Source: an uncultured Chloroflexia bacterium
GTDB lineage: Bacteria; Chloroflexota; Limnocylindria; Limnocylindrales; CSP1-4
Assembly (NCBI GenBank): GCA_963778645.1
Contig: CAVZVH010000026.1
Span: 723,841 to 787,840 of the forward strand
Length of the DNA stretch: 64,000 bases
Direction of reading: 5' to 3'
Each line of letters starts with the position of its first letter. Positions within the stretch are counted from its first letter, which is position 1. The notes beneath the pieces are model-generated. The model made no database searches. It was not told the DNA's origin and saw nothing but the letters and a program-made list of their open reading frames with translations. This document shows positions 44,286-62,186 of the stretch, one piece after another. The position numbers were made by a program, and so were the translations under genes.

Positions 44286-44401
44286 CGACCGTACGTCCGT
44301 ACCAGTCGTGTCGGGACCGATGGTCCGCCGTCGGGACGCGACACCGATGCCACCATCGGCACGTGAGCGTTCGTCATCCCGTCGGCGACCGCGAGCCCGG
44401 C

Positions 44402-46558
44402 ATGTCCGGGTCCCGGCCGACCGCTCCGCCTCGCACCGGCCCCGGGCCGTCCGTCTTTCGACGACTGCTCGGCGGTCAGGTCGCAACGGCGCCCCTCCCG
44501 TCGGTCGCGGGCGATCGCTCGCTGGAGATCGAACTCGCCGAGCGCCTGGACTCGGTCCTCGGCATCGCCGAACGATTGGCCGCCTCCCACGACCGCCAGG
44601 AGCTCTTTCGAACGATCGTGGATGAGACCCGGCGGGCTCTTCGCGCCGACTGCACGACGATCCGCATCCTCCACGAGGACCGGCTGGACGTGGCCGCCTG
44701 GGCCGGCCTGTCGGATGAGATGGCGGCCCGTCTGCCGGTCTTCACGCGGGACGAAGGCTGGGTCGGCGAAGTCCTCCGGACGGGTCGGGTCCTGGCGTTT
44801 CCCGATGTCCGCCAGATCGACGCGTACGGCTTCGACCGCTACGCGGACGTCCTCCAATTCGCCGGCGAGCTCGTCGCGCCGCTCATCCACCACGACCGGG
44901 TCATCGGGGCGCTGACGGCGGTCACGTACGAGCCGCGCGACTGGACGAGTGGGGATGTCGCGTTCATCACCACGCTCGCGACGCACGCCGCCATCGCGCT
45001 GACCAACGCGGAGCTCTTCGAACAGACGGAGGCACGAGCGGCGCAGTTGGGCGTCCTGCAGGCGGCCTCCGCGCGGTTGAGCCGGGCCGGCTCGGTCGAG
45101 GAGATCGGCCGGACCGTCATCGAGGAGACCCGCCGGATCATCGACTACCACAACGCCCGGGTCTATGTGGTCGAGGCCGACGAGGTGGTCCCGATCGCCT
45201 TCGCGGGGATCGTCGGTGCCTACGAGCAGGTGGACCTCGCGCTCCTGCGCTGCCGTCTCGGCGAGGGCTTTACCGGCTGGGTCGCCCAGCACGGCGAGGC
45301 GCTGCTCATCAACGACGCGAACGCGGACACCCGCGGCGCGACGATCGCCGGCACCGAGGATGTCGACGAATCGATGCTCGTCGTCCCGATGCGCTACGAC
45401 CAGACCGTCGTCGGGGTCATCACGCTCTCGAAGCTCGGCCTCGACCAGTTCGATCCCGACGACCTGCGGCTCCTCACGATCCTCGCCGACCAGGCGGCCA
45501 CGGCGGTCGAATCGGCCCGGCTGCTGGCACGGACCCAGGACCTCGCCGGGGAGTTGCGCCGGCTCCTGGACATGAGCGCCGAGCTGTCGGAGAGCCTGGA
45601 TCCGCGACAGGTGGCGAACCTGATGGCCGGTCACCTGGCCCTGGCCATGGGCGTCGACGAGTGCGCCATCAGCTACTGGGACCGGCCCGCCGGCCGGGTC
45701 GAGTCGCTGGGCTACTACCCTCCCCTCAAGGTCGGGGAGATGGAGCCGTATTACGAGGTCGGGCGCTACCCCGAGACCCTTCGCGTCCTGGAGCGACAGG
45801 ACACGGTCATCATCGAGGCGGACGATCCCTCGGCCGACCCGGCCGAGGTCGCGCTCCTGAAACGCGAAGGCAACCATGTCCTGGCGATGCTGCCGCTCGT
45901 GGCGAAGGGGCAGTCGATCGGCCTCGTCGAGTTGTTCTCGAGGGCGACCATCACCTGGGACGCCGAACGACTGCAGCTGGGTCGGACCATGGCCAACGAG
46001 GCGGCCATGGCGCTCGAGAACGCCCGCCTGTACGAGGACGCCCGCAACCGCGCCGATCGCGACCCGTTGACCAACTTCTACAACCACCGGTTCCTGCATG
46101 AGCGGTTGGGCGAGGAAGTCGTCCGGGCGCAGCGGGCCAGGCAGCCGTTGAGCGTGCTGATGCTGGACCTCGACGACTTCAAGCTGGTGAACGACACGTT
46201 CGGCCACCTGTTCGGCGACCGGGTCCTGACCTGGACGGCGGAGCTCCTGCGGTCGACGTTGCGGGCGTCGGACGTGCCCGCCCGCTACGGCGGCGACGAG
46301 TTCGCGATCATCCTGCCCGAGACCGACGCGGCGGAGGCCCGGTCGGCCGCGAACCGCATGCTGGACGCCTTCCGCGACAACCCGTTCGTCGGCGAGCAGC
46401 GCGGGCCGGTGCCCATCGGCGCATCGATCGGGGTCGCGACGTTCCCCCTCGACGGCCGGACCGCCACGGACCTGATCCTCGCCGCCGACCGCGCCCTGTA
46501 CCAGGTCAAGCGAGGCGGTGGTCACGACGCCGCGGCCGCCTCCGACACGGCCGCCTGA
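44402..46558 (+). CDS. Multi-GAF sensor diguanylate cyclase (GGDEF)
   Basis: In frame with ORF 44159..46558; the start is ATG 44402 or GTG 44363. It has three GAF-like repeats, then DPLTNFYNHRFLHERL...LDLDDFKLVNDTFGHLFGD...RYGGDEFAIILP. I saw no EAL or HD-GYP domain. Confidence 0.85.
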   Translation: MSGSRPTAPPRTGPGPSVFRRLLGGQVATAPLPSVAGDRSLEIELAERLDSVLGIAERLAASHDRQELFRTIVDETRRALRADCTTIRILHEDRLDVAAWAGLSDEMAARLPVFTRDEGWVGEVLRTGRVLAFPDVRQIDAYGFDRYADVLQFAGELVAPLIHHDRVIGALTAVTYEPRDWTSGDVAFITTLATHAAIALTNAELFEQTEARAAQLGVLQAASARLSRAGSVEEIGRTVIEETRRIIDYHNARVYVVEADEVVPIAFAGIVGAYEQVDLALLRCRLGEGFTGWVAQHGEALLINDANADTRGATIAGTEDVDESMLVVPMRYDQTVVGVITLSKLGLDQFDPDDLRLLTILADQAATAVESARLLARTQDLAGELRRLLDMSAELSESLDPRQVANLMAGHLALAMGVDECAISYWDRPAGRVESLGYYPPLKVGEMEPYYEVGRYPETLRVLERQDTVIIEADDPSADPAEVALLKREGNHVLAMLPLVAKGQSIGLVELFSRATITWDAERLQLGRTMANEAAMALENARLYEDARNRADRDPLTNFYNHRFLHERLGEEVVRAQRARQPLSVLMLDLDDFKLVNDTFGHLFGDRVLTWTAELLRSTLRASDVPARYGGDEFAIILPETDAAEARSAANRMLDAFRDNPFVGEQRGPVPIGASIGVATFPLDGRTATDLILAADRALYQVKRGGGHDAAAASDTAA

Positions 46559-46577: not shown

Positions 46578-46671
46578 GTAGTACGGAAGTACTACGTCAC
46601 CGAGGGCCAGTCGTACCAGCCACGGGACTGGACGGAACGTCTCCGGACCCGCATCCTTTACTTCCGACGTG
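46578..46671 (+). promoter_or_regulatory. Candidate structured leader upstream of the second GGDEF gene
   Basis: An unusually AT-rich palindrome GTAGTAC-ggaa-GTACTAC lies at 46578-46595. Its CGGAAGTA (46584-46591) is also complementary to TACTTCCG (46659-46666), 2 nt before the GTG at 46669. Confidence 0.25.
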
Positions 46672-47925
46672 ACCGAACCCACCCACCGCCGGACAAGCGA
46701 CGGCCTGATGCCAGACCAGCGCATCCGACGCTCCTGGTGGATCTTCGCCGACACGTTCATCCTGCTGACGGTCCTCCTGTTGGCGCGCCTGCTGACCGAT
46801 GGCGGGCGCTCGCTCGACTGGGTCGTGGCGGCGCTCGCACTGATCGTGGGGATCGCCGCGTTCCGTCATCGCCGGGCGGTCGCCGACCTGGAGGCGGGTC
46901 GACGAGCCGAGGCGGAGTCGTTCGCCCGGATCCTTTCGGGGCTGTCCCGCTCGGTCTCCGAGGACGCGATCGTCGGCGCGATCGTCGAGGAACTCGCGAG
47001 CACGGCCGGCGCGGATCACATCGTCGTCGCGCGCCGAAGTCCCGAGGCGAACGCCGTCGAGGCCACGCTCATCAGCGCGCGGCCGGGCGTGGCGCCGTCG
47101 ACGACCCTGTTGGCGGCTGCCGGACTCGATCGACCGCTCGTCAGGCCGGCGCGTCGACAGGTCGGTCTCCATGGTCGACCCGGATCGGCGGCGTCGATCG
47201 AGAGCGAGGCGGCCCAGGCCATCGCCGACCGGATCGCCGAGCAGGTCCGCAGCGCCTATGGGCTGACCCACATGCTGGCGGCGCCGCTGCGAGCACCCGA
47301 CGGGGTCGTGGGCGCCATCGTCATCTCGCGTCGTTCGGCGGAACCGTGGTCCGGCATGACCCGACGGCTCCTCAATGGCGCCGCACTCGAGGCGTCGGCC
47401 GCCCTGTCGCGGGCCGGCTCGCTTCGTACGGCCGAGATGCAGGCGTCGACGGATGCGCTCACCGGGCTGCCCAATCGTCGCTACTTCGACGAGTTCTGTG
47501 GGCTGCTGGCGCGTCGACGACGCGCCGAGGACGCCGTCGGCGTGCTCATGGTCGATATCGACCGGTTCAAGGTCCTCAACGACCGGTTCGGCCATGCGGC
47601 CGGTGACGACGTCCTCAAGGCGGTCGGGCGGGCCATCGTCGGGGCGGTGCGCGACGACGATGTGCCGGCGCGGTACGGCGGCGAGGAATTCGTCGTCCTG
47701 CTGCGCAACCCGAGCGAACCCGTCGCGCTCGAGATCGGCGAGCGCGTGCGCGAGAGCGTCGCGGCGCTCGACCTGTCGGCTCTCGGCATCCCGGCCGTCT
47801 CGGTGTCGGTCGGGGTCGCCGTCGCCGACCGCCCGGACCAGCCGATCGGCGAGCTCGTCGAGATCGCGGACCAGGCCCTCTACCGCGCCAAGCGGGCGGG
47901 GCGCGACCGGGTGGTCGCCGCGTAG
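46669..47925 (+). CDS. Membrane-anchored diguanylate cyclase (GGDEF)
   Basis: 418 aa; start is GTG 46669 or ATG 46708. It has two N-terminal TM helices and a GAF-like middle region. The catalytic part reads DALTGLPNRRYFDEF...VDIDRFKVLNDRFGHAAGD...RYGGEEFVVLL. Confidence 0.85.
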   Translation: MTEPTHRRTSDGLMPDQRIRRSWWIFADTFILLTVLLLARLLTDGGRSLDWVVAALALIVGIAAFRHRRAVADLEAGRRAEAESFARILSGLSRSVSEDAIVGAIVEELASTAGADHIVVARRSPEANAVEATLISARPGVAPSTTLLAAAGLDRPLVRPARRQVGLHGRPGSAASIESEAAQAIADRIAEQVRSAYGLTHMLAAPLRAPDGVVGAIVISRRSAEPWSGMTRRLLNGAALEASAALSRAGSLRTAEMQASTDALTGLPNRRYFDEFCGLLARRRRAEDAVGVLMVDIDRFKVLNDRFGHAAGDDVLKAVGRAIVGAVRDDDVPARYGGEEFVVLLRNPSEPVALEIGERVRESVAALDLSALGIPAVSVSVGVAVADRPDQPIGELVEIADQALYRAKRAGRDRVVAA

Positions 47926-47941
47926 CCGCTACCATCGGGCG

Positions 47942-49810
47942 GTGACCCACGAACCCCTCGAAGACCGACGCGACGGACGACGAACCGACGCTGACCAACG
48001 GCGACCTCGCGCGGATCTTCCACGAGATCGGCGACATGCTCGAGGTCAAGGGCGAGCTCGTGTTCAAGACCGTCGCCTACCACCGCGCCGCCGATGCGAT
48101 CGGGCGCAGTCCGGTCGACCTGGTGGCCGCCTACCGGTCCGGGACGCCGCCGCGCATCCCAGGCGTCGGGGCGGCGATCAGCGACAAGCTCGCCGAACTG
48201 GCCAGGACCGGCCACCTCGCGTTCTACGATCGGCTGCGCGCCGAGATCCCGCCCGGGCTCGTGGCGCTGCTGCAGATCCCGGGATTGGGCCCCAAGACCG
48301 TCCGTCAGCTCAACATGGAACTCAAGATCGAGTCGATCGAGGACCTGCGCGCAGCCGCGGATGCCGGCCTGTTGCGCGACCTGCGCGGGATGTCGGAGAA
48401 GACCGAAGCGCTCGTCCTCGAGGGGATCGCGCGCCTGGAATCGACGCCGCAGCGGATGCTCCTCGATCGGGCCGAGGAGCGCATCGACGAGCTGATGAGC
48501 GCCCTCGCGGACACCCCGGGCCTCCGTGGCGTGGAGCCGGCCGGATCGTTCCGCCGCCGGCTCGAGACGATCGGGGACCTGGACCTCCTCGCCGAGACGG
48601 ACGACGCCGGTGCCCTGATCGGGCGATTCACGTCGCTCGGGGTCGTCGACCACGTCGTGAACCAGGGTGGCTACAAGGCGGCCGTCCGGCTGATGCGCGG
48701 CCCCCAGGCCGACCTGATGGTCATGCCGCCCGGGCGAGGCCGGCACGTACCGCATCCACTTCACGGGCTCCAAGGAGCACAACGTCCGACTGCGGGCGAT
48801 GGCCCGTGACCACGGCTGGAGCCTCTCCGAGAAGGGCTTCCTGCGCATCGACGAGAAGGGCGAGCCGCTGACCGGCGACGCCGCCGAGCTGCGGACGTTC
48901 CCGACCGAGCCCGAGGCCTACGCGTTCCTCGGGTCTGCCGTTCATCGAGCCGGAGCTGCGCGAGGACGCCGGCGAGATCGAGGCGGCGCTCGCCGGTCGC
49001 CTGCCCGCCTGGTCACGCATCGACGACCTGCGCGGCGACCTGCACACGCACTCCGACTGGACCGACGGTGTCCACCCCATCGAGGTCAGATGGCCGAAGC
49101 CGCCCGACGGCGCGGCTACGCGTACCAGGTCCTGACCGACCACACCCAGTCGCTGGCCATCGCCCGCGGACTCCGGCCGGACCAGGTGGCCGAGCAGCGC
49201 GAGATCATCGCGGCGCTCAACGCCCGGTTCGCCGCCGAGGAGGCGGCCGGGCACCGCGCCGCCGGAGACGCCGGCCGGCGGGTTCCGGCTGCTGCATGGC
49301 TGCGAGCTGGAGATCCGGGCCGACGGGACGCTCGACTTCGAAGACGACCTGCTCGCCTCGTTCGACCTCGTCGTCGCGTCGCTCCACGTCTCGCGCCGAC
49401 AGCCGCGGGCGGACCTGACGCGGCGAACGCTGAACGCGATCCGGAGCCCGCACGTGGACGTCATCGCCCACCCGGCCGGCCGGATGATCGGCACGCGGGA
49501 CGATCTCGATCTCGAGTGGGACCAGGTCTACGCCGAGGCCGCCCGGACCGGCACCGTGCTGGAGATGAACGGATCGCCCCACCGGCTCGACCTGGCGGTC
49601 GAGCGAGCCCGTCGGGCGGTCGCCGATGGGTGCCTCCTGTCGGTCGACTCCGACGCCCACAAGACCGGCGAGCTCGACTACGTCCGGTGGGGCATCAGCC
49701 AGGCCCGCCGCGCGTGGGTCGAGCCCGCGAACGTCCTCAACACCCGCAACCGTGAGGACCTGCTCGCGTGGGTGGCCGCGAAGCCGACCGGACGTGAGGT
49801 CGGAGTGGCG
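47942..49810 (+). pseudogene. polX: DNA polymerase X family protein with PHP domain, at least 5 frame disruptions
   Basis: Pieces: GTG 47942 then (E)PSKTDATDDEPTLTNGDLARIFHEIGDMLEVKGELVFKTVAYHRAADAI...IPGLGPKTV...DLDLL...ADLMVMPP / GTYRIHFTGSKEHNVRLRAMARDHGWSLSEKGF...EAYAFLG / LPFIEPELRED...DLHTHSDWTDG / AEAARRRGYAYQVLTDHTQS / FRLLHGCELEIRADG...VVASLH...VDVIAHPAGR...SVDSDAH. Shifts lie near 47955, 48735, 48935, 49085 and 49270. There is no in-frame stop before 49811. Confidence 0.75.
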
Positions 49811-50660
49811 ATGAGCGTCTCGCGTACCATCCCCGCGATGGACGACCGACTCGCCCGCCGCGACCTCGCGCTGGCGGCGATGACCGTCGTCGGGCTGTCG
49901 CGCCTCATGGAGCCTCCGGCGCTGTGGCTGGTCGCGGTGCTGCTGCTCGTCGCGATGCTGTTCGGGACGCTCCAGGTGCTCGCCGACGAGAGTCATCCGG
50001 CCGAGGCCTTGGCCGGTGTCGCCATCGAAGCCCTGATCCTGCCGTCGGTCGCGGCGGTCGCCTGCCTCGGGGCCATCCGCCTCGTGCCGTTCGGCTTGTG
50101 GCTGATCCCGGCACTACTGGTCACCGGTCTGCTCGTCGCCCAGGCGCTGGCCATGGAGGCCAGGATCCACGCGGACCAGGAGGACCTCTCGTCAGCCGAT
50201 CGGACCTCGCTCCTGGTCACGATCCTGCTGATCGGGTTCCTGGGGTTCACCGGCGTCGCAGCGATGGTCCCGGGCGGCCTCGTCCAGCCGACCGCCGATG
50301 GCGGCGTCACGCCGCCGATCCCCGAGACCGACCTCCTGACGCTCGCGGCCGGGGACGCGGTCATCGCGTTCCTCCTTGGCTACCGGGCTGCCTCGTTGCG
50401 GCTCGTGACCCTTCGCGACGCCCTGTGGTCCGCGCTGACCTACGCCGCTCGCGATCGCGATCGGTGCCGCCGCCCTGCGCGCGATGGCGATCCCGCGCCT
50501 GATGGGGCCTGCCCTGCTGACGCTGGCCTTCTACCTGTGGGACGCGTTCCACGGGGCGTCGCCGGCCCGCCGCCGCGACATCAACTGGATCTGGCAGACG
50601 GTCCTGCTGGCGGGCCTCGGGGTCATCGTGGTCGCCTGGAACCTGCTCCTGCGCGGCTGA
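49811..50660 (+). pseudogene. Hypothetical polytopic membrane protein with a frameshift near 50447
   Basis: ATG 49811 follows GGAG. MSVSRTIPAMDDRLARRDLALAAMTVVGL... has about 6 hydrophobic helices in the ORF 49454..50713 frame. The last part (AIAIGAAALRAMAIPRLMGPALLTLAFYLWD...NLLLRG-stop at 50658-50660) is in another frame. Confidence 0.5.
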
Positions 50661-50719: not shown

Positions 50720-51668
50720 ATGCCCGCGCAGCGGCCCGGCCGTGGCCGCGCGCCCCGAACCCGAACCGCCCGAACTTCGCCGCGCCCCGAAAGGACCAGC
50801 CACCCGTGACCTTCCGCCCGACGTCGAGACCACGCCCCAGAGCCCGGTCAATCTCACCCGCACCGAAGCGCCAGCTGGCCGACCAGGCCATCGCCCAGGC
50901 GTCCGCCGCCCAGTGGGCCGATGCCGCGGCCACGAACCGCAAGCTCCTCGAGCTCGGGCCGGACGCAGAGGCCGAGAACCGCCTCGCCAAGGCGCTCTGG
51001 GAGCTGGGTGAGCTCGCCTCCGCGCGCGAGCACTACCAGACGGCCCTCGCGCTCGATCCCGACCAACCGCATCGCCGAGCGCAACATCGACCGGCTCAAG
51101 ATGCTGCTGGTGGCCGCCGGCGAGAAGACCGTGCCCGGCCCAGGAGGGCAGCAAGGCCCCGGTCGGCATCTTCGTCGAGGAGACCGGCAAGACCGGGTTC
51201 GCCTTCCTGACCGACCTCCCCGACCCGCGCCAGCTGGCCCAGGTCAATCCGGGCGACAACGTCGAGCTGATGCCCGAGGGCAACCGGCTCATCGCCATCA
51301 GCAACGGCATGCGCATCGGCGTCGTCGAGCCGCGCGTCGCGGCCCGCCTCCTCAAGCTGATCGCCGACGGCAACAAGTACGCCGCCGGCGTCACGTCGCT
51401 CGGCGACAAGGACGTCCGGATCATCATCCGCGAGGTCTTCCAGGACCCGCGCAACTACGGCAAGGTCAGTTTCCCGACCGCGGCCAAGTCCACGGACCTG
51501 CGCCCGTACACGAAGGGCACGCTCGTCCGCGAGGAGATGGAGCTCGAGGACGACCTGGAGGACGACGAGGAGGACGAGGAGATCGAGGACCTCGATCGCG
51601 TCCTGCCGCCCGAGTCGACCACGGACGAGGCGTTCGAAGAGGAGCCCGACGAGCTCGACGAGGCGTAA
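50720..51668 (+). pseudogene. TPR-like protein with conserved-looking middle domain and acidic C-terminal tail, 2-3 frame disruptions; 5' end uncertain
   Basis: Pieces: QLADQAIAQASAAQWADAAATNRKLLELGPDAEAENRLAKALWELGELASAREHYQTALALDP / NRIAERNIDRLKMLL / KAPVGIFVEETGKTGFAFLTDL...MPEGNRLIAISNGMRIGVVEPRVAARLLKLIADGNKYAAGV...EEMELEDDLEDDEEDEEIEDL. Shifts lie near 51065 and 51110-51150. Confidence 0.5.
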
Positions 51669-51729
51669 GGGCCGCTGACCGCGACCCGAACCCGCTTGGG
51701 GGTATCGCCGGTCCGCTAGCATCCTGTTG

Positions 51730-54570
51730 ATGACGGGTCGACACGCGCCCGCGAGCCTCACGCCCGGCTTCTCGCTGCCGGCCTTCGAGAAGTCGGCGCC
51801 GCCACCGCCCCCCGGCCTGGTCGCGGCGCGCATCGACATGCACTCGAGCTCCGGCGACGTCGTCGCCGATCTCTTCGGGCGGGGCGGCTGGGTCGCGCGG
51901 GCAGCCGTCGACCGGCAGCGGCGCGCCGTCTCCCTCGAATCGACGCCGCTGACCCGGATGCTCGCCGAGGTGGTGCTGCGGCCGCCGGACGTCCGCCACC
52001 TCGACGCCGCGTTCCAGGGCATGGCCGCCTCGCCGCGACGCGAGTCGAGCCTCAAGGTGTCGCTCGGCGACCTGTACGCGACGCGCTGCGCGACGTGCGG
52101 CCGGATGCTGGTCGTCGACGAGATCGTGTGGGGCCTCGACGAAGGCATGGACGTCGCGACCGCGGACGCCACGGCCGCCAAGCCGATCGCCCGGAATTAC
52201 CGATGCACGGTCTGCCGCGACCAGCGGGGCGGGTCGGAGCAGCGCTCGGGGCCGCTCGACGACGACGACCTCGCCAAGATCGCCGCCGACGTCGGCGTGG
52301 ACGAGGTGCGGGCCAGCTTGCGCGGACGGTTCGCGCCGGTCGATGGCGCCGAATCGCTGGTCGACGAGCTGCTGGCGCTCCACACCCCACGCCAGCTGGT
52401 CGGGCTCGCGGCCATCCTCGACCGCATCGAGAGCGACCTCCGCGCCGCGCCCGTCCTGGCGGCGCTCCGACTGGCCTTCCTGCACAGCATCCTGCCGGCC
52501 AGCCGCCTGGCCACCACCAACGGGCGGATCGCGAACCTGCGCATCAACGGCGGCCACGTGCGGCTTCCGACGGCGACGCAGTGGCGGGAGCGCAACCCGT
52601 GGTTGGCCTTCGAGGATGCCGTGCGACTGGTCCGGGGCTTCGTCCAGCGGCTCGAGGGTGGTGCGCTCGGACCCCTTCAGGCCCGCCTCGGCGAGGACCT
52701 GCGGAGCCTGGGGGAGGGGACGGCGACCGCGGTCCTGGCCCTCTCGAGCCCATCCGGCCTGCGCGTCCTCCACGACCAGCCCGACGTCCAGGGTCGGGGC
52801 GCGCCGGCCCCGCGGATCCGCCTGGTCCTTGGCCAGCCGCCGGTCCGGCCCGGTCTCGAACGCCTGGGCATCGCCTACCACGCGACGTCCTGGGTGCTCG
52901 GGCGCGATGCCGCCTCACTGCTCCCGATCGACGCCCTGGCCGGATCGTCGCTCCGGGCGCCCTGGAGCTGGCAGGCCGTGACGATCGGACGGGCGCTCGA
53001 AGCCGCCGCACCCGCGATGGCCCGGGATGGTCGTGCGGTCCTGCTGGCCGACAGCGGGCCGGAGGGTCTGGCGGCGGCCGTCCTTGGCGGAGCGAGCGCG
53101 GGCTATCGACTGGTGAGCGCCCGCCTGGCCGACGGCGACGACGAGGTCGGCGGGTCGGTGGAATTCCTGCCGCCCGGTGCCGCGCGGCCGCCCGCGCCGC
53201 GGACCCGGTCCAATGTGTCGTTGCCGCCGATCCCGGGCGGCGCCGGCGATCCGGACCTCGTGCCCGGGCCGGGCCTCTTCTCCGCCCCTGAGCGCTTCGA
53301 CCAGCGGCCGTTCTCCGCCGCGGAGGCGGCGCAGACCGTGACCGACACGGCCGTGGAGACGCTGCGAGCCCGCGGCGAACCGGCCCGCTACGAACGGCTC
53401 TTCGGCGAGGTCCTCGTCGGGCTGGATCGGGCCGGGCAGCTCCGCCGGCTCGCGACGGTCGACTCCGAACGAGGCCGCGCGGCGGCGCGACGCATCGACG
53501 GATCGGGCGCGACCGAGTGGCCCGAGACCGAGGAGCCACCGAGCGACGGGCCGGTCGGACCCACGTCAGCAGCGGGACGCGACTCGGACGGGCCACCGGC
53601 ACGCCGGCGTGCCGACCGAGCGGTCGGGGCACCGCCGGACCTCCGCTCGGGCTCGTTGCGAGTGGCTTCAGCAGGCGAGGCATCGCCCGACCCGGTCGAC
53701 CGGCTCCTCTCGCTCGTGCGCGACGAGATGACGCGGCCCGGGAATGGCCGGCTCATGGAGATCGAGCCCGGCCGCTGGTGGCTCGCCGACCCGAAGGACC
53801 AGGAAGCGGCGGCCATCCCACTCGCAGACCGCGTCGAATGGGCCGTGTTCAGCCTCCTCTCGACCGCGGGCCCGCTCTCCGAGGCCGCGTTCTTCGAGCG
53901 CATCGCGACGCTCTTCACCGGCCATGACCTGCCCGACGAGGGCCTGGTCCGGGCCTGCCTGGAGAGCTATCGGAGCATGGCCAGCACGCCGGACCGTCTG
54001 GTCACGACGGACGACCTGCTTCGCCGTAGCCAGGAGCACACCGACCTGCTCGCGACGCTCGCTGACGCCGGTCATCGACTCGGCCTGCGGGTCTGGCTGG
54101 CCCAGCGCGAGCAGACCCGACGGACGCACGGCACGCTGCTCGGCGACCGGCTCGACCGACGCGAGCGGCAGGCGTACCTGGGCGCGATCAGCCGGCCGGC
54201 CGAGGATCTCGCCGACGTCGACTGCATCTGGTACGTTCGCGGCAAGGTCGCGCTGCTGTTCGAGGTCGAGTGGACCGCGATGCTGGGCGAGCCGCTCCTG
54301 CGCCGTCATGCCCGGATCCCGCCGAACGATTCGCTCGTGCGGTTCCTGGTCATCGCCCCGGAGCGGACCGAGCTCGTCCGCTACAAGATCGGTCGCTCGC
54401 CGCTGCTGCGTGCCGCCCTCGAGGCCGGCGCCTTCAACATCGTCAAATCGGACCACCTCCGGCGTTTCCTCGACGTCGAGAAGCCGGATCTCGCGGATCT
54501 CGAGCCGTACCTGGGCCTCGATCCGATGATCGAGCGGAGCGGGGAGCAGATGCCGCTGTTCGGGGGCTGA
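51730..54570 (+). CDS. Large Zn-ribbon DNA-methylase-like protein (COG1743-like layout) with degenerate catalytic motif and PD-(D/E)xK-like C-terminal domain
   Basis: Unbroken 947-codon ORF (TTG 51727 or ATG 51730). Features: PPGLVAARIDMHSSSGDVVADLFGRGGWVARAAVDRQRRAVSLE (SAM motif-I-like FGxGG), a Cys4 ribbon CATCG...CTVCRD, HTPRQLVGLAAIL, WRERNPW, LVLGQPPVRPG where DPPY is expected, and the C-terminal DVDCIWYVRGKVALLFEVEW. Confidence 0.6.
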   Translation: MTGRHAPASLTPGFSLPAFEKSAPPPPPGLVAARIDMHSSSGDVVADLFGRGGWVARAAVDRQRRAVSLESTPLTRMLAEVVLRPPDVRHLDAAFQGMAASPRRESSLKVSLGDLYATRCATCGRMLVVDEIVWGLDEGMDVATADATAAKPIARNYRCTVCRDQRGGSEQRSGPLDDDDLAKIAADVGVDEVRASLRGRFAPVDGAESLVDELLALHTPRQLVGLAAILDRIESDLRAAPVLAALRLAFLHSILPASRLATTNGRIANLRINGGHVRLPTATQWRERNPWLAFEDAVRLVRGFVQRLEGGALGPLQARLGEDLRSLGEGTATAVLALSSPSGLRVLHDQPDVQGRGAPAPRIRLVLGQPPVRPGLERLGIAYHATSWVLGRDAASLLPIDALAGSSLRAPWSWQAVTIGRALEAAAPAMARDGRAVLLADSGPEGLAAAVLGGASAGYRLVSARLADGDDEVGGSVEFLPPGAARPPAPRTRSNVSLPPIPGGAGDPDLVPGPGLFSAPERFDQRPFSAAEAAQTVTDTAVETLRARGEPARYERLFGEVLVGLDRAGQLRRLATVDSERGRAAARRIDGSGATEWPETEEPPSDGPVGPTSAAGRDSDGPPARRRADRAVGAPPDLRSGSLRVASAGEASPDPVDRLLSLVRDEMTRPGNGRLMEIEPGRWWLADPKDQEAAAIPLADRVEWAVFSLLSTAGPLSEAAFFERIATLFTGHDLPDEGLVRACLESYRSMASTPDRLVTTDDLLRRSQEHTDLLATLADAGHRLGLRVWLAQREQTRRTHGTLLGDRLDRRERQAYLGAISRPAEDLADVDCIWYVRGKVALLFEVEWTAMLGEPLLRRHARIPPNDSLVRFLVIAPERTELVRYKIGRSPLLRAALEAGAFNIVKSDHLRRFLDVEKPDLADLEPYLGLDPMIERSGEQMPLFGG

Positions 54571-54730: not shown

Positions 54731-56417
54731 GTGACCACGCCCCGTTATGCCGGCTCGCCGGTCGATGAGCTCGCCGATCGCTTCTGGGAGGCGATCCTGG
54801 AGCTGAACCCGACGACCGCCACGTTCTACGGCGACCCGCGCTACGCGGACCGCCTGGAGGATCCGGGGCCCGAGGGCCGGGCCAAGACTCGCGCACTCAT
54901 GGAACGGACCGCGGAGGAGGCGCGTGCCATCTCGACCGATGGGCTGCCCACCGAGGAGCGCATCACCCGCGACATGCTGCTCGTCATCGCGGAGCTCAAC
55001 ATCGAGGAGGACGACCAGCGCCTGCACGAGCTGCGGGTCGTGGACCAGATGGGCGGCCCGCAGCAGCTGCTGCCCCAGATGACCCAGTTCCAGCCGGCCG
55101 ACACACCCGAAGGACTCGAGGCCTTCATCGGTCGCCTCAACGCGTACCCGGCGTTCATGGCGGCGAATTCGCAGATCCTCATCGATGGGATGCATTCAGG
55201 TCTCACGGCGCCGAGGATCGTGACCGAGCGCACGATCGCGCAGATCGAGCGGATGCTGTCGGTGCCGATCGACGAGGCGATCATCCCCTCGATGGTCACC
55301 GTCGCGTCGGACGCCGACCGTGAGCGCATCCGCGAGATCGTCCGCGACGTGGTCGTCCCCGCCGACACGGCCTTCCTCGACACCCTGCGCGGCGAGTACC
55401 GGCACGCCAGCCGCGAGGAACCGGGCATCTGGTCGGCACCCAACGGCGACCAGCTCTACCGGACCGCGATCCGCAGCTGGACGACCCTCGACCTCGACCC
55501 CGAGGACGTCCATCGGACGGGCCTGGCGGACATCGAGCAGATCGAACTCGAACGCCGCGAGATCGCCCGAGCGGCCGGCTTCGGTGACGACACGGCCGCG
55601 TACCGGGCGGCGCTCGATGCCGATCCGGCCAACACGCCCAAGACCAAGGCGGAGCTCGTGCGAACGCGCCGCCGAGGACATCGAGCGCGCCATGGCGGCC
55701 GCACCGCGCTTCTTCGGCGTCCTGCCCAGGGCCGGCTGTGATGTCCGCCCGGTCGAGGAGTACAAGGAGAAGGACGCGCCCTTCGCGTACTACTACCCGC
55801 CGGCCGCCGACGGCTCACGGTCGGGCATCTACTACGCCAACGGGTACGACCTCCCGAGTCGCAAGTACACCAAGCTCGCCACGACGACCTACCACGAGGC
55901 GGCGCCCGGTCACCATTTCCAGATCACCCTGGAGATGGAGAACCCGCACCTCAACACGTTCCGACGCCTCGGGGCGCGGATGGTCGGCGGGGCTTACGTC
56001 GAGGGCTGGGGCCTGTACAGCGAGCGCCTTGCCGACGAGATGGGGCTGTTCCGCGACGAGGCCGAGCGCTTCGGCATGCTCGATGCCCAGGCGTGGCGCG
56101 CCGCGCGGCTCGTTGTCGATACCGGGCTGCACGCCCTTCGTTGGGAGCGCCAGCGTTCGATCGACTTCCTCCAGCAGACGGGCCTGTCGGAGACCGACGC
56201 GGTCATCGAGACCGACCGCTACATCTGCTGGCCGGGCCAGGCGCTGACCTACAAGGTCGGCCAGCGCGAGATCGAGCGGTTGCGGGCCGAGCTCTCGGCA
56301 CGGGACGGCTCCGACTTCGACCTGCGCGCGTTCCACGACGCCGTCCTCGGTCACGGGTCATTGCCACTGGCGACGCTCTCCCGCGAGCTCCCGAACTGGG
56401 TGGCCACGCCGGCCTGA
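54731..56417 (+). pseudogene. DUF885-family protein with one frameshift near 55655-55665
   Basis: The N-terminal 310 aa are in ORF 54731..55741 (GAGGAGG upstream of the GTG start). The C-terminal part is in ORF 55320..56417 (RAAEDIERAMAAAPRFFG...TTYHEAAPGHHFQ...DRYICWPGQALTYKVG). Confidence 0.75.
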
Positions 56418-56540: not shown

Positions 56541-58273
56541 ATGACCGCACGCACCCGGCCCCTGGCGCCAGCGCGCCTCATCATCCTGATCGGCGGCCGT
56601 GGCGCTCGTCGCCGGGCTGGCCGGCACTGCCGGCGCGGCCGGGCCGCCCGGGTTCCAGACGACAAAGGGCTCGATGCTCACCCCGACCGTGCCGCGCGCC
56701 TGGGTCGACCCGATCATGACCGTCGGCGATGACATCGGTGCCTATCAGTTCGAGTCGATCCCGGACGGGATCGCGATCCGCAAGGCGTCCGGTCACGGCA
56801 AGGCGGAGGTCTACGTCAACCACGAGACCTCGACCGTGCCATTCCCGTACGTTGCGACCGGACCGACGGCCGCCAACTCGCAGAACGACTTCGACAACGC
56901 CCAGGTGAGCAAGCTGATCATCGATACCGACGATGCGAGCGTCCTCCAGGCGTCGATGGCGATCACCAGCGCCGAGGGCTACCAGCGGTTCTGCTCGAAC
57001 TTCCTCGCCACCAAGGCGCATGGGTTCTCGCGCGAGCTGCTGTTCACGAACGAGGAAGCCGTCGACTGGGTCAAGCGATCCGGCCCGCCGTTCTGGCCGA
57101 CGATCGAGGGCGCAGACGACTCACGCCAGCGGGCGTCGTCGTGGCCCTCGACCCGAAGACCGGCGAACGACGACCGATCTGGGGCATGGGTCGCCACAAC
57201 CACGAGAACAGCGTGGCGCTGCCCGGCTACAAGAAGCCGGTCGTCCTCTCGGGTGACGACACCTTCGTCAACTTCCCCTCGCAGTCACAGCTCTTCTCGT
57301 ACATCGCCCCGAACGCGAACGCGGTCTGGAACGACACGGGCGATCTGTGGGCGTTCGTGTTGGACGATCCGAGGCTGCAGTACGAGGACTTCGTCCTGAA
57401 CGACACGGCGGCCCCCGCCGGTCACTTCATCAAGGTGCCCAAGCTCATCGCGACCGGCAGGAACCCGGACGGGACCGAGGTCATGTCCACGGATGCGGAG
57501 TTGGCGCTGGGCCTCCCCGGCCAGTTCGCGGTGCCGACCGACGGGTCGTTCTCGCGCCCGCCCGGGCATGACGACCGGCGCCAAGCGTCGACGGCCCCCA
57601 GTGGGTCCTCGAGCGCTGGTCCCAGCTCAACGGCGTCTTCAAGTTCATCCGCCTCGAGGACATGGCCTACGACAAGCGCCATGGCATGTCCAACGTCGTC
57701 TATATCGTGGACTCCGGTCGCGGCGCATCGGGCGCAGTGGCCAACGGCAAGTCGACGAACGGGCGCGTCTGGAAGATGGTCTTCGACAAGAACGACCCGA
57801 CCAAGGTGACGTCGCTGTCGATCCTCATCGAGGGCGACGACAGTCCGATCAAGACGATCGGCGAGATCCACCAGCCCGACAACATCGAGTCCACCACGCG
57901 CGGCCTCTACCTCACCGAGGATCCGGGCGGTGGCCAACAGTTCAACTTCACCGATCCGCTGCACATCAACGATCCGAACCGGACTCCGGCGCGGATCTGG
58001 CAATACAAGCTCAGCGGCGGTGCGACGTCGGTCGTCGCGGTGGTCGATCAGTCGACCGATGAAGCAGTCGGCGACGTCGACACCACGAGCCGCGGGAACC
58101 TCGGCGCGTGGGAAGCCAGTGGCATCGTGGACGTGTCCGACTTCTTCGGGTCCGGCACCTTCCTGGTGACGATCCAGGCCCATACGATCTTCATCGAGAT
58201 CGCCGACGCGGGGACCTGGCTCAACAAGCGCGAAGGCGGCCAGCTGGTGCTGTTGCGGATCCCAGGCGCCTGA
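56541..58273 (+). pseudogene. DUF839/PhoX-like secreted beta-propeller protein (putative phosphatase), at least 4 frame disruptions
   Basis: ATG 56541 follows GGAGGAGG. Pieces: MTARTRPLAPARLIILIGG / VALVAGLAGTAGAAGPPGFQ...EGYQRFCSNFLATK...LLFTNEE / VVVALDPKTGERRPIWGMGRHNHENSV...VVLSGDDTF / VDGPQWVLERWSQLNGVFKFIRLEDMAYDK...VYIVDSGRG...GRVWKMVFD...LYLTEDPGG...GAWEASGIVDVS. Shifts lie near 56595, 57115 and 57550-57590. Confidence 0.6.
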
Positions 58274-58334: not shown

Positions 58335-59740
58335 TCAGGAATCGAACCCGATCCCAAGGGCGTCGAGCGTCTGGAGGATGAGGCCGCGGCGACCCTCGTT
58401 GCGGTCGGCGCGATCCAGCTCGTGGCGGACGGTCTCGACCGCCATGGACCGCAGCGGTTCGGGCGGGAAGGGGATCGGTGCGCTCGAGACGATGCGCAGT
58501 CGCAGCCGGTCCTCGTCGGGTCGCAGGATGAAGTCCCGCACGACGCCGCCCGCCCACCGGCTGGCCCCGACCCCGAGGCCCGTGTAGCCCAACGCGTACG
58601 TCACGCGACCACCCATCGTCTGGCCGAAGGTGACCGTGAACCGCGACGTCGTGTCGATGGCGCCGCCCCAGCGATACGGAAACCCCAGGCCCTCGAGCTG
58701 CGGAAACGCTCGGAAGAACTGGGCCTCGAGCTTGTCGAACGTCGCTGGCCGACGATCCAGCTCCGGTCCCACCCGGCTGCCGTAATGGTGGATCGCGTCG
58801 TACCCGCCCCACAGGATCCGGTCGTCGGCGGTCAGTCGGAAGTAGTGGAACTGGTTGTTGCCGTCCGACAGACCCTGTCGCCGCACCCAGCCGAGCGGAT
58901 CCGCGCATCAGAGGGCGTCAGCGGTTCGGACACCAGCACGTAGTCGTAGACCGGCACGAACAGCGGTGACAACCGCCGAAACCAGTTCGAATAGGCCGAC
59001 GTGGCGACGACCACCTGGCCGGCATGGACGGTGGCGCCGTCGGCGGTTCGGAGCACGACGGCGCCGGCGACTCGTTCCAGCGTCGTCACCTTCGTCCGCT
59101 CGTGGATCCGGACACCGCGCGCCCGGGCGACGCGGGCGATCCCGCGGCACAACGCCACCGGATCGACGAGGACATCCCGACCGGGCGGCCGATACAGGCC
59201 GGCCTGCCAGATCGGTGAGCGGACCTCGGCCTGGGCAGCGTCGCGGTCGAGGAATTCGAGATGCTCGCCGTGCTCGGCCGCCTCGTCCACCCACGCACGG
59301 AACTCGTCGACCTGGTAGCCCTGGTCGGCCAGGGTGAGCGTGCCCGTCTCCTCGAGGTCGCAGTCGATGCCGTGCTCGCGCGTGAACGCGATCAGTCCCT
59401 GCAGGTTCTCGATGCCTTCCCGCTCGAGGCGCTCGAGCTCATCCGGGAAATGCTTGATCCCGTTCGCCAGGCCGTGCGTCAGGCTGGCCTCGCAGAACCC
59501 GCCGTTGCGGCCGCTCGCCCCGAATGCGACGGTCTCCGCCTCGAGGACGAGGACCCGCAGTGAGGGATCCGTATCGGTGAGCGCGATCGCCGTCCACAGG
59601 CCGGTGAACCCGGCGCCGACGATCGCGACATCGACCGTCGTCGGCTCGCCGGGGGTCAACGAAGGGTCGGCGGGAGGGCCCGGGTCTCGGAGCCAGTAGC
59701 TGATGGGTTGCTGGCCGTTAGCCCCGGGCCGGTCGGTCAT
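58335..59740 (-). pseudogene. FAD-dependent oxidoreductase (DAO family, gamma-glutamylputrescine-oxidase-like) with one frameshift near 58895-58905
   Basis: The N-terminal 280 aa are the last part of ORF 58832..61162 (MTDRPGANG...VDVAIVGAGFTGLWTA...GASGRNGG). The C-terminal part is in ORF 58335..58886 (GWVRRQGLSDGNNQFHYFRLTADDRILWGGYD...). Confidence 0.7.
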
Positions 59741-59953: not shown

Positions 59954-61354
59954 ATGGCCACAGAGCCCGCCGCCCGCCCGACGCCGTCGATCACGCGCGA
60001 CCGCCAGCACGAGCTGTACGAGCGAGCGTTGCGGCATCTGCCCGGCGGCGCCAACTCGAACTTCCGGGCGTGGGGCGACGACACCATCTATGTCGACCGC
60101 GGCCAGGGTGGGCTCGTCTGGGACATGGACGGCAACGAGTTCGTCGACCTGCGGATGGGCTACGGGCCGGTCATCCTCGGCCACGGTGACGCACGCGTCG
60201 ACGACTACGTCAACGAGCGGATGCGCCGGGGCGTCAGCTTCAGCCTGACCAGCGAGGACGAGATCCGCGCGATCGAGCTCGTGTGCGAGCTGACCGGCTG
60301 GGTCGAGATGGCGCGGATGACGGTCTCGGGCACCGAGGCCACGATGCACGCGATGCGCATCGCGCGCGCCTACACGGGCCGCGAGAAGATCGTGAAGTTC
60401 GAAGGCCAGTACCACGGCGTCCACGACTACGCGCTCATCAGCGTCGGGCCTGACGACATGTCCGAGCTGGGTGACGCCGAGAAGCCGGTCGCGCTCGCGT
60501 GGGGTCGCGGCATCCCGGGAGCGGTCGCCGACACGATCATCCCGGCCCGCTACAACAACATCGACTTCCTGCGCCGGTTGTTCGAGGAGCAGGGACACGA
60601 GATCGCGGCGGTGATCGTCGAACCCGTGCTCGGCAACGCCCAGGGGATCATGCCCAAGCCAGGCTTCCACAAGGCCATGCGGGCCCTCACCGAAGAATTC
60701 GGCATCCTGCTGATCTTCGACGAGGTCAAGACGGGCTTCCGCTTCGCCCGGGGCGGCGCCGCTGAATTCTTCGGCATCACACCGGACCTCGCGACCTACG
60801 CCAAGGCGATGGGGAACGGCTATCCGGCGGCGGCGTTCGGGGGGTCGCGCGAGGTCATGAGTGTGCTGCCGGACAAGGTCAGCCATGGCGGCACCTACGC
60901 GGGCAACCGCATCGCGGCCGCGGCCGCGGTGAAGACGCTGACCATCCTCAAGGAGACGGACGCCCTCGAGACGATCCACGCCACCGGGCGCCGCCTGCAG
61001 GACGGGCTCAAGGAGATCCTGAACCCGGTCGGGATCCCGTACCACTTCACCGGGCACCCATCCATGTTCGGGATCATGTTCCGAGAGGAGGAGGCGTCCG
61101 AGTACCGCGACTGGGCCACAACGGACCACGAGCTGTACGACGCGATCGCGATCGGCATGCACGCTCGCGGCGCGATGCCCGAGCCCGATTCACGCGAGCC
61201 GTGGTTCCTCTGCGAAGCGCACGCGAAAGGCGACCTCATCGATCGCGTGCTCACCGCGTTCTCCGACTCGCTGGACGCAGCGCTCGAAGACCGCGCACAT
61301 CACGCACCGCCGCCGACGCCGCATGGCGGGATGGCATCGCCCGGCGCGGGCTGA
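59954..61354 (+). CDS. Class-III (aspartate aminotransferase family) PLP aminotransferase, GSA-aminomutase-like
   Basis: ATG at residue 83 of ORF 59708..61354. Motifs are LPGGANSNFR, VDLRMGYGPVILGH, MTVSGTEATMHAMRIARAYTGR, IFDEVKTGFR and ATYAKAMGNGYP. Confidence 0.85.
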   Translation: MATEPAARPTPSITRDRQHELYERALRHLPGGANSNFRAWGDDTIYVDRGQGGLVWDMDGNEFVDLRMGYGPVILGHGDARVDDYVNERMRRGVSFSLTSEDEIRAIELVCELTGWVEMARMTVSGTEATMHAMRIARAYTGREKIVKFEGQYHGVHDYALISVGPDDMSELGDAEKPVALAWGRGIPGAVADTIIPARYNNIDFLRRLFEEQGHEIAAVIVEPVLGNAQGIMPKPGFHKAMRALTEEFGILLIFDEVKTGFRFARGGAAEFFGITPDLATYAKAMGNGYPAAAFGGSREVMSVLPDKVSHGGTYAGNRIAAAAAVKTLTILKETDALETIHATGRRLQDGLKEILNPVGIPYHFTGHPSMFGIMFREEEASEYRDWATTDHELYDAIAIGMHARGAMPEPDSREPWFLCEAHAKGDLIDRVLTAFSDSLDAALEDRAHHAPPPTPHGGMASPGAG

Positions 61355-61376: not shown

Positions 61377-62186
61377 ATGGTCCTCGATGGCAACGCGGTC
61401 CGCTCGGTCGACCGGGCGGCGGCCCTGCTCCTTGCCCTCGGGGACAGTCAGGGCGAGGCCGGGGTGACCGAGCTCGCCCGACGCCTCGGCCTGCACAAGT
61501 CAACGGCCTCGCGTCTGTTGGCGACGCTCCAGAAGCGCGGTCTGGTCGAGCAGGACGACGAGACCGGCAAGTACCGGCTGGGTCTCGTGGTCATCCGCCT
61601 GGCCGAACGGGCCGAACGGACCCTGGACCTGCGTGGCATCGCGCTGCCCGAGCTCGAACGCCTGGCGCGCCTCACCCACGAGACGACCGGCCTGGGCGTG
61701 CTGGACGGCGAATCGATGCTCGCCGTCGCGCAGGTCGATGGCCCGAATCTCATCGCGGTCGGCGATTGGACCGGGCGCGCCACACCACTCCATTGCGTCG
61801 CCTCCGGCAAGGTCCTGCTGGCGGCCCTGGCCGAGCGGGAGGTGCTTCGCATCGTCCGCCATGGCCTTGTCAGTTACACGGAACGAACGATCACCGAGCT
61901 CGAGCCGCTCCTCGAGGAGCTGGCCCGCATCCGCCGGCGCGGTTACGCGACGGCGATCGGTGAGTACGAGTTGGGACTCAACGCGGTGGCCGCACCGGTG
62001 CACGACGCCCGCAGCAACGTCATCGCGGCGGTCGACATCTGGGGGCCGGCCTTCCGCCTGACCCCACGCCGAGTGCCGGAGCTCGCGGCCCAGGCGCGCG
62101 AGGCCGCGGCGGCCATCTCGGTCCGCCTGGGCGGTACGGTTCCCGAGCGCGATCCCGCACGAACACCGACGACCGCCACCGCCTGA
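61377..62186 (+). CDS. IclR-family transcriptional regulator
   Basis: ATG at residue 19 of ORF 61323..62186. It has the HTH VTELARRLGLHKSTASRLLATLQKRGLV and an effector-domain pattern (GYATAIGEYELGLNAVAAPV). Confidence 0.85.
   Translation: MVLDGNAVRSVDRAAALLLALGDSQGEAGVTELARRLGLHKSTASRLLATLQKRGLVEQDDETGKYRLGLVVIRLAERAERTLDLRGIALPELERLARLTHETTGLGVLDGESMLAVAQVDGPNLIAVGDWTGRATPLHCVASGKVLLAALAEREVLRIVRHGLVSYTERTITELEPLLEELARIRRRGYATAIGEYELGLNAVAAPVHDARSNVIAAVDIWGPAFRLTPRRVPELAAQAREAAAAISVRLGGTVPERDPARTPTTATA

Follow-up and report, generated by a model that had tools for sequence, protein, structure and literature searches.

The window analyzed here is a stretch of 64,000 nucleotides (nt) from an uncultured Chloroflexia bacterium (GenBank assembly GCA_963778645.1, contig CAVZVH010000026.1, positions 723,841 to 787,840 of the forward strand), and our subject is one gene on its plus strand that encodes a protein of 946 amino acids (aa). 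As judged from sequence comparisons, this protein descends from an amino-DNA-methyltransferase fused to an NmeDI-type nuclease-like domain, and the clade to which it belongs has retained the D...E-x-E residues of its restriction-enzyme relatives and of a related branch with intact methylase motifs (hereafter, the active branch). We favor, with roughly even confidence, the reading that this member of a methylation-dead Chloroflexota branch recognizes DNA and cuts it in a chromosomal housekeeping role, not in defense. We consider it a good candidate for a domesticated restriction-modification (R-M) enzyme.

The list of open reading frames (ORFs) of the window gives 51727..54570 on the plus strand, thus 947 aa if counted from the TTG at 51727. 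However, this TTG is merely the first in-frame start codon, and by comparison with orthologs and with the copy of the protein in our sequence collection (P0001, 946 aa, beginning with MTGR) the true start is the ATG at 51730:

51730..54570, plus strand: whole gene, 946 aa plus stop codon

A tblastn search with the ortholog from locus L001 remains in a single frame over 51730-54567, at 91% identity. The first-pass annotation, made by a model from the letters of the window, had described an unbroken frame of 946 aa with a series of motifs, all of which are confirmed by coordinates and homology: FGRGG is aa 49-53 (nt 51874-51888), the cysteines C120/C123/C159/C162 fall at nt 52087-52215, HTPRQL is aa 218-223, WRERNPW is aa 285-291, GQPPV is aa 368-372 (nt 52831-52845), and D829-x-D831...LLFEVEW848 begins at nt 54214. 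These motifs are invariant or almost so in 25 orthologs of the window clade (67-93% identity). Further, the zinc (Zn) ribbon cysteines, R221, E287, W291, D831, and W834 are invariant in a set of 59 sequences that reaches down to 21% identity (with C162 replaced by H in one). Given conservation in both sets, the motifs are not chance occurrences.

It should be noted that the homologies described below are detectable only with family profiles and distant relatives, not with the single protein. On its own, the window protein found no match in local Pfam-A, NCBIfam, or PDB sequences (the alignment with Pfam PF01555, N6_N4_Mtase, is weak, with an E value of 0.44 over profile positions 167-211, at the motif I end of the profile), and it has weak matches only in PADLOC. 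The AlphaFold2 (AF2) model of the full-length protein is a confident one, with a predicted local distance difference test score (pLDDT) of 83 and a predicted template modeling score (pTM) of 0.81.

The methyltransferase-like N-terminal half

The N-terminal half comprises a module with motif I placed before, and motif IV placed after, a zinc ribbon and a helical insert:

51757..53190, plus strand: methyltransferase-like module, aa 10-487, Rossmann-type fold (family profile against PDB, AF2, Foldseek)
51868..51891, plus strand: degenerate motif I and S-adenosylmethionine (SAM) loop, D47-L-F-G-R-G-G-W54 (intact relatives have DPF(S/A)GSG)
51919..51954, plus strand: motif II-like strand ending in E70, then x-x-P73 (sequence alignment)
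52087..52215, plus strand: Cys4 zinc ribbon, C120-x2-C123 ... C159-x2-C162 (conservation, model, PDB profile)
52381..52602, plus strand: helical insert with LHTPRQLVGL (aa 217-226) and WRERNPW (aa 285-291) (family conservation)
52816..52848, plus strand: degenerate motif IV, I363-R-L-V-L-G-Q-P-P-V-R373 (intact relatives have (V/I)DYIFTDPPYD)

The origin among Zn-ribbon N4/N6 DNA methylases proposed by the first-pass annotation holds up. A family profile built from the 59 sequences matches beta-class DNA methyltransferases (PF01555) in the PDB at E values down to ~1e-9 (TTHA0409, 2zie, E 8.7e-10; M.RsrI, 1eg2, E 1.8e-9; M.PvuII, 1boo, E 2e-5; M.MboIIA, E 8e-5; CcrM, E 1e-3). The matches are split into two pieces in permuted order, with family positions 19-88 aligned to the C-terminal motif I region of the beta-class enzymes and family positions ~314-350 aligned to their N-terminal motif IV, where the family consensus vrLvlgsPPvld lies opposite VHLVVTSPPYWT and VQLIICDPPYN. 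Distant relatives of the window protein exceed the Pfam gathering cut-off for N6_N4_Mtase, solely at profile positions ~160-215 of 221. The predicted fold resembles that of the class-I SAM methyltransferases: the module is modeled with pLDDT mostly >90, and the best Foldseek matches of the full-length model in the PDB, although weak, are all class-I SAM methyltransferases. The zinc ribbon is modeled as beta-hairpins at 117-135 and 151-157 (pLDDT mostly >90 over residues 100-180, the lowest blocks being 81 and 84), and Zn-finger PDB chains align with this stretch in the family profile search. C120, C123, and C159 are invariant across the 59 sequences, and C162 is retained in 58 of them. In the helical insert, R221, L223, E287, and W291 are invariant even when the active branch is included (there the motifs read TPRNL and EQNVW). 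Overall, the N-terminal half is best described, by homology, as a circularly permuted relative of the N6A/N4C DNA methyltransferases that carries a Cys4 zinc ribbon. It differs from the beta-class enzymes in this permutation, in the replacement of FxGxG and (D/S)PPY, and in its ~460 extra C-terminal residues.

Both motifs that matter for catalysis are altered. At the place of (D/N/S)PP(Y/F/W) the window protein has Q369-P-P-V372, so that it has neither the catalytic D/N/S nor the aromatic residue; the GQPPV that had been noted at the expected DPPY position indeed aligns opposite SPPY of TTHA0409, DPPY of M.RsrI, and TDPPY of the intact relative P0339. In motif I, the FxGxG pattern is broken by R51, which replaces the first Gly of GxG. 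The residue in this column (nt 51880-51882) is R in 39 and Q in 13 of the 59 sequences (52 together), and such uniform substitution suggests a remodeled pocket rather than drift or simple decay. In amino-methyltransferases, residues of motif I and motif IV are both required for positioning the cofactor and the target base. The suggestion that catalysis may be lost, originally based on motif IV, can therefore be raised to probable because motif I is degenerate as well, and the capacity of the window protein for DNA methylation has, from its residues, almost certainly been lost.

The loss is a property of a branch rather than of one sequence. In the 59-sequence alignment, all but one (58/59) lack FxGxG and (D/N/S)PP(Y/F), the sole keeper being P0339. 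In an alignment of 34 sequences, in which the two branches share invariant columns, FxGSG is present in 21/21 sampled members of the active branch and DPPY in 20/21 (P0457 has DPHY), and the Chloroflexota branch without exception reads F-(G/C)-(R/Q)... and (G/S/A/T)(Q/S/A)PP(V/M/R/P). We consider it very unlikely that the window protein is still an active methyltransferase, of DNA or of another substrate, that works with noncanonical motifs and uses the nuclease-like domain for target recognition. Such an enzyme would account for the Rossmann scaffold and E70 of motif II, which are retained and highly constrained (most members have an acidic residue at this site, and P73 does not vary), and the active branch shows that the architecture is compatible with a canonical methylase. 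However, the D/N/S and the aromatic residue of motif IV are missing branch-wide, Arg or Gln stands in place of the first SAM-loop glycine, and the window protein alone has no significant Pfam methyltransferase match.

The intact relatives make the descent explicit. A BLASTP comparison of P0001 with P0339 yields one collinear alignment (aa 29-911, E 4e-26), and a search with another family member, P0193, retrieves P0339 at E 2.6e-43 with 96% coverage. Alongside canonical DPFSGSG and FTDPPY, P0339 shows the Zn ribbon, the winged helix, and the C-terminal D...W...FEVE of the window protein, and its insert blocks read TPRNL and EQNVW. Its N-terminal half matches the PADLOC type II methylase model (MTase_II, PDLC03367) end to end at E 2e-35, and the region from its insert to motif IV matches PglXI of bacteriophage exclusion (BREX) type 3 systems at E 5.6e-38. 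P0339 also matches plasmid genes annotated as “DNA methyltransferase” and “DUF1156 domain-containing protein,” which supports the first-pass association with COG1743-type “methylase with Zn ribbon” proteins. This likeness to COG1743/DUF1156 and PglXI methylases is a property of the intact relative; the window protein itself does not reach the PglXI and DUF1156 models, the PADLOC DUF1156_MTase model aligns with P0339 only over the motif I stretch, and neither the window protein nor its relatives have a DUF1156 N-terminal domain by Pfam.

A search with P0339 recovered >1,300 proteins of ~820-860 aa that combine N6_N4_Mtase, Dam-type, and NmeDI_C Pfam matches. Their hosts include Ignavibacteriales, Cyclobacteriaceae, Thermodesulfobacteriota, and Candidate Phyla Radiation (CPR) bacteria, and they are annotated as “DNA adenine methylase” or “DNA modification methylase” (examples are P0346, “MAG: DNA adenine methylase [Ignavibacteriales],” where MAG is metagenome-assembled genome, and P0393, “DNA methyltransferase [Thermodesulfobacteriota]”). 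These proteins share the domain order of the window protein from end to end, with the Cys4 ribbon, TPR(N/Q)L, E-x-N-x-W, winged helix, and C-terminal D...W...FE(V/I)E...K, and the window protein carries every element of the architecture over its full length (motif I region, CxxC...CxxC, TPRxL, ExNxW, motif IV strand, winged helix, and NmeDI_C). They differ in having DPF(S/A)GSG and TDPPY where the window branch has DLFGRGGW and GQPPV, and in spanning several phyla, whereas the degenerate branch is Chloroflexota wherever a taxon is named. A profile search of 1.84 billion representatives returned 1,363 clusters at E ≤ 1e-3, distant full-length relatives among them. Thus, contrary to the first-pass annotation, the arrangement is not undescribed: by sequence, it is already present in thousands of database proteins, with a Pfam domain name, and in >1,300 catalytically intact proteins from several phyla. 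The new element here is that a large methylation-dead branch, fixed by vertical descent, has been recognized. We found no paper on this family in the literature on PF27126/NmeDI_C or on inactive-methylase nucleases (a preprint on MANTIS that surfaced in the search is unrelated).

The C-terminal nuclease-like domain

Between the methyltransferase-like module and the C-terminal domain lies a region of linkers and small domains:

53191..53295, plus strand: disordered linker 1, aa 488-522 (pLDDT <50)
53296..53505, plus strand: helical middle domain, aa 523-592 (R548, E550, and P551, “RARGEP,” conserved throughout the family)
53506..53679, plus strand: disordered low-complexity linker 2, aa 593-650, variable in length (pLDDT <50)
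53680..54009, plus strand: winged-helix-like region, aa 651-760 (WW683-684, P697, and E703 conserved)
54010..54567, plus strand: NmeDI_C-type restriction-endonuclease-like domain, aa 761-946 (PF27126, PDLC03534, hhalign, fold)
54034-54036 (E769), 54220-54222 (D831), 54262-54264 (E845), 54268-54270 (E847), and 54385-54387 (K886), plus strand: candidate active-site residues

Linker 2 cannot be aligned among orthologs. Residues 651-946 were also modeled separately with AF2 (pLDDT 87), and the winged-helix region resembles in Foldseek the winged helix of the cullin WHB domain (probability ~0.9, root-mean-square deviation 2.5 Å over 69 aa) and STK19.

The assignment of the C-terminal domain as nuclease-like is well supported, and the resemblance to a PD-(D/E)xK core noted in the first reading is upheld as a likeness to restriction nucleases. 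The family carries the precomputed Pfam label PF27126 (NmeDI_C), and aa 756-946 match the PADLOC model REase_II PDLC03534 at E 8.3e-5 (profile positions ~176-307 of 351). When the C-terminal family profile was compared by hhalign with a plasmid gene annotated as “restriction endonuclease,” itself a full-length member of PDLC03534 (E 4e-123), the two aligned over 134 columns with a probability of 94% and an E value of 1.4e-7. In this alignment VDCIWY...LLFEVEW lies opposite IDCIWF...AVMEIEH, placing D831, E845, and E847 on the D...E-x-E of the restriction enzyme. The same profile found no relative among PDB sequences.

The models predict a PD-(D/E)xK-like core topology of alpha-beta-beta-beta-alpha-beta. 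The first helix carries E769, D831 immediately precedes beta2 (strand 832-836), E845-x-E847 falls within beta3, and R879 and K886 are in the helix that follows beta3; this topology would cluster the five candidate residues. The top non-methylase Foldseek matches of the C-terminal model in the PDB are FokI, EcoT38I, AgeI, and MUS81, and those in a viral library are an ERCC4 nuclease (E 3e-3), a phage restriction endonuclease, endonuclease I, Mrr, and MmcB-like proteins. D831, E845, E847, and K886 are invariant over the 25 orthologs of the window clade, and from this residue pattern the domain may well be catalytically competent.

BamHI offers an instructive analogy. Its active site is a variant of PD-(D/E)xK in which Glu replaces Lys (D94/E111/E113). 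The acidic D...E-x-E of the window protein, in which D831 leads into beta2 and E-x-E is part of beta3, recalls this pattern, although the window protein has no detectable sequence match and no significant structural match to BamHI. One of the closest named enzymes is R.NmeDI, a type II enzyme of 351 aa that recognizes RCCGGY and cuts on both sides of its site (PMC2095814). The C-terminal half of R.NmeDI-type enzymes (~176-306 of 351) is homologous to the C-terminal ~135 aa of the window protein, D...E-x-E included, whereas their N-terminal half is absent from it. Also in contrast to R.NmeDI, the window gene has no cognate methylase next door and is vertically inherited rather than mobile.

Genomic context and selection

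At least 561 species-representative genomes encode a relative of the window gene, and the synteny counts given here rest on the best 80 loci among them, nearly all of which are labeled as Chloroflexota or Limnocylindria MAGs. In these loci the gene order is fixed: PolX, a hypothetical protein, a tetratricopeptide repeat (TPR) protein, the window gene, and DUF885. The TPR gene is directly upstream on the same strand in 74/80 and DUF885 directly downstream in 77/80; the hypothetical protein (282 aa) is upstream in 65/80 and PolX in 59/80. The corresponding features in the window, with one gene further downstream, are

47967-49786, plus strand: PolX, family X DNA polymerase (HHH_8, DNA_pol_B_thumb, PHP)
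49811-50657, plus strand: 282-aa hypothetical protein, no Pfam match
50811..51668, plus strand: upstream TPR protein with acidic C-terminal tail, ~285 aa in orthologs, in three frames in the window
54731..56417, plus strand: downstream DUF885 protein, a synteny marker, with a frame change near 55660
58353-59707: flavin adenine dinucleotide (FAD) oxidoreductase, frame-switching

Three loci (L022, L083, and L086) have the typical Limnocylindria gene order, but their MAGs are labeled Saccharimonadales, Deferrimicrobiaceae, or Polarisedimenticolia, and they are probably mis-binned contigs in those MAGs.

The same-strand TPR gene with an acidic tail, which had been placed ~60 nt upstream, is separated from the window gene by 61 nt. 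It is clade-specific, yet a constant partner inside the clade, and is more conserved than the window gene itself (L001:9073-9933 in L001; median 88.6% identity, best segment). Its similarity to TPR proteins is generic, with one or two repeats recognizable, and its C-terminal ~180 aa returned no match. PolX, the hypothetical protein, the TPR protein, and the window gene may together form one gene cluster; promoter and terminator scans around the TPR and window genes found nothing either way. In five of the 80 loci, an Hcp-like (T6SS_HCP) gene lies between the hypothetical protein and the TPR gene (L001:8393-8875, minus strand); the window has no such gene.

Farther out in the degenerate branch, the neighbors differ but are just as ordinary: recA/recX/RNase Y and L25/MreB, tRNA synthetases, G6PD/OpcA, or RNase J. 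Genes of the active branch likewise have housekeeping neighbors rather than lying in R-M operons; they are either flanked by enolase and phosphoglucomutase or immediately downstream of a small RadC-N-like gene, which takes the place of the TPR gene as the conserved neighbor in two of three loci. In these two (L092:7673-7999 and L093:7664-7999), the UPF0758_N (RadC N-terminal-like) gene ends 1-2 nt before the methylase-nuclease gene, a spacing that suggests translational coupling and a conserved partner of the intact branch.

Substitution rates measured against the closest species (synonymous rate, dS, ~0.5-0.6) give ratios of nonsynonymous to synonymous substitution (dN/dS) of 0.05-0.06 for the methylase-like module and 0.01-0.02 for aa 361-487 around motif IV (the most constrained segment). 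The nuclease-like domain has values of 0.05-0.08, and disordered linker 2 (aa 593-650) has values of 0.15-0.5. All folded modules are under strong purifying selection, and such constraint on a catalytically degenerate module implies that it is functional in some other way. The gene behaves as part of the core genome, being vertically inherited in a housekeeping neighborhood. The loss of catalytic motifs could in principle mark a decaying, functionless relic of an R-M fusion gene. We reject this, giving it next to no credence, given dN/dS values far below 1 over folded modules at that divergence, a 2.8-kb frame that is unbroken in at least 561 species, and invariant blocks in 25 orthologs.

A related claim was that this is the only long intact ORF among pseudogenes. 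This does not stand, as GAF (44369-46525), GAF-GGDEF (46669-47922), aminotransferase (59954-61351), and IclR (61377-62183) genes are all intact in the window. Compared with intact orthologs, PolX, the 282-aa hypothetical protein, TPR, DUF885, and the FAD oxidoreductase change frame through insertions of one base, with protein identity of 85-98% on either side of each. Most relatives come from “MFD...contig_N” long-read MAGs. Two assemblies (L001 and L002) represent essentially the same organism, with 99.6-99.9% DNA identity and an identical target protein. Over 14.8 kb, 12 one-base indels separate the two, and a GAF gene is split in one assembly only. Because the insertions are of single bases in sequence that is otherwise highly conserved, and assemblies of one organism show differences of this kind, the frameshifts are probably long-read assembly errors rather than pseudogenes, to which no biological significance should be attached. 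For the same reasons we reject the idea that this ORF alone was spared while its neighbors decayed. The fragments of ORFs, in three frames, at 56599-58273, between DUF885 and the FAD oxidoreductase, are probably another frameshifted gene (PhoX is at the corresponding place in L005). The apparent pseudogenes are thus a caution regarding indel errors in long-read MAGs.

The same survey of neighborhoods, suggested in the first reading as a check for defense-island enrichment, showed housekeeping neighbors in fixed synteny; the gene does not sit in a defense island. No restriction, methylase, or defense partner was found in the 11 gene-annotated loci inspected, no BREX partner (PglZ, BrxC/PglY, BrxA, and others) in the 20-kb neighborhoods examined, and no adjacent cognate methyltransferase, as in an R-M operon, in any locus listed. 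The full architecture was not found in the 72,556 plasmids of PLSDB, and the two halves of the window protein have no match in PHROGs. These results count against the label of defense element that the gene had first been given, for a gene that is single, strictly syntenic, and vertically inherited. We regard it as unlikely that the protein is a single-protein defense enzyme in which the dead methylase reads methylated or modified bases of foreign DNA and the nuclease cuts, in the manner of type IV restriction. There is some logic to such a reading, in that the modules derive from R-M systems, modified bases could plausibly be read by a base-flipping pocket that has lost catalysis, restriction of type IV works without a cognate methylase, and the conserved R51/W54 replacement in the cofactor loop resembles a remodeled pocket. 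Against it, the synteny is fixed (74-77/80 of the best loci), at least 561 species genomes carry the gene, no defense genes flank it in the annotated loci, the full architecture is missing from the plasmids, the two halves of the window protein match no PHROGs family, and selection is strongly purifying, not diversifying. It had also been reasoned that conserved housekeeping orthologs of known function would speak against a defense element; the orthologs are indeed conserved, in a housekeeping-like context, but the part about a known function does not apply.

Possible function of the methylation-dead branch

The reading that we favor, at the roughly even confidence given above, is that DNA recognition would be all that is left to the dead methylase fold, the zinc ribbon, and the winged helices, possibly with a base docked or flipped into the altered pocket. 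Mg2+-dependent cleavage of DNA by the C-terminal domain, through E769/D831/E845/E847/K886, would then follow. The role would be in maintenance of chromosomal DNA (repair or recombination) and not in defense against foreign DNA.

Several points weigh against this. An active endonuclease that is unprotected would require tight control. The nuclease-like domain has no Foldseek match at E ≤ 1e-3 in the PDB or the viral library. A role in repair is hinted at by the conserved PolX neighbor and by scattered recA and AP-endonuclease-type neighbors elsewhere, but the hint is weak because neighborhoods are not conserved between clades. The strongest counterevidence is that in sister Chloroflexota clades V-V-Q, V-V-R, or V-V-T replaces E845-V-E847 (F-x-F-R is also found at this site among sister clades of the degenerate branch), while D831, W834, K886, and E769 are retained. 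The nuclease-type acidic pair is thus dispensable in part of the family. Because these clades lost E845-x-E847 yet kept the remaining protein, the function shared across the branch may not require nuclease chemistry.

For this reason a noncatalytic DNA-binding role is a serious rival, although we place it clearly below an even chance. The protein would then be purely a DNA-binding or scaffold protein (nucleoid-associated, regulatory, or a recruiter, for example of the TPR neighbor), and both folds would be mere binding surfaces. This would fit the sister clades without E845/E847, which are still full length, and the fact that both methylase motifs are already dead. It would also fit the most constrained segment (aa 361-487) lying outside the nuclease domain, and a conserved TPR partner that suggests protein-protein interactions. 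It accounts less well for the window clade, in which the residues at positions 831, 845, 847, and 886 are invariant and correspond to those of the restriction-enzyme relatives and the active branch, and for the strong constraint on the nuclease-like domain noted above.

A further possibility, which we think doubtful, gives the altered pocket a more active part. The dead methyltransferase, fixed in the core genome of Limnocylindria and related Chloroflexota, would read a flipped base (damaged or modified) and license the NmeDI-type nuclease, possibly restrained by the neighboring TPR protein with its acidic tail. The result would be a domesticated R-M enzyme acting as a chromosomal repair or surveillance nuclease.

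If the housekeeping reading that we favor is true, this would be a clear bacterial case of a domesticated R-M-type fusion enzyme that has lost methyl transfer and is kept under strong selection, fixed at a core genomic position across a major uncultured lineage of soil and freshwater. Members of the degenerate branch should be neither annotated as methyltransferases nor counted as defense or R-M genes in surveys. Under the favored reading, the window protein would also provide a first handle on a very large family, with >1,300 intact and >1,300 degenerate clusters, that is currently labeled “DNA methylase” or “hypothetical.”

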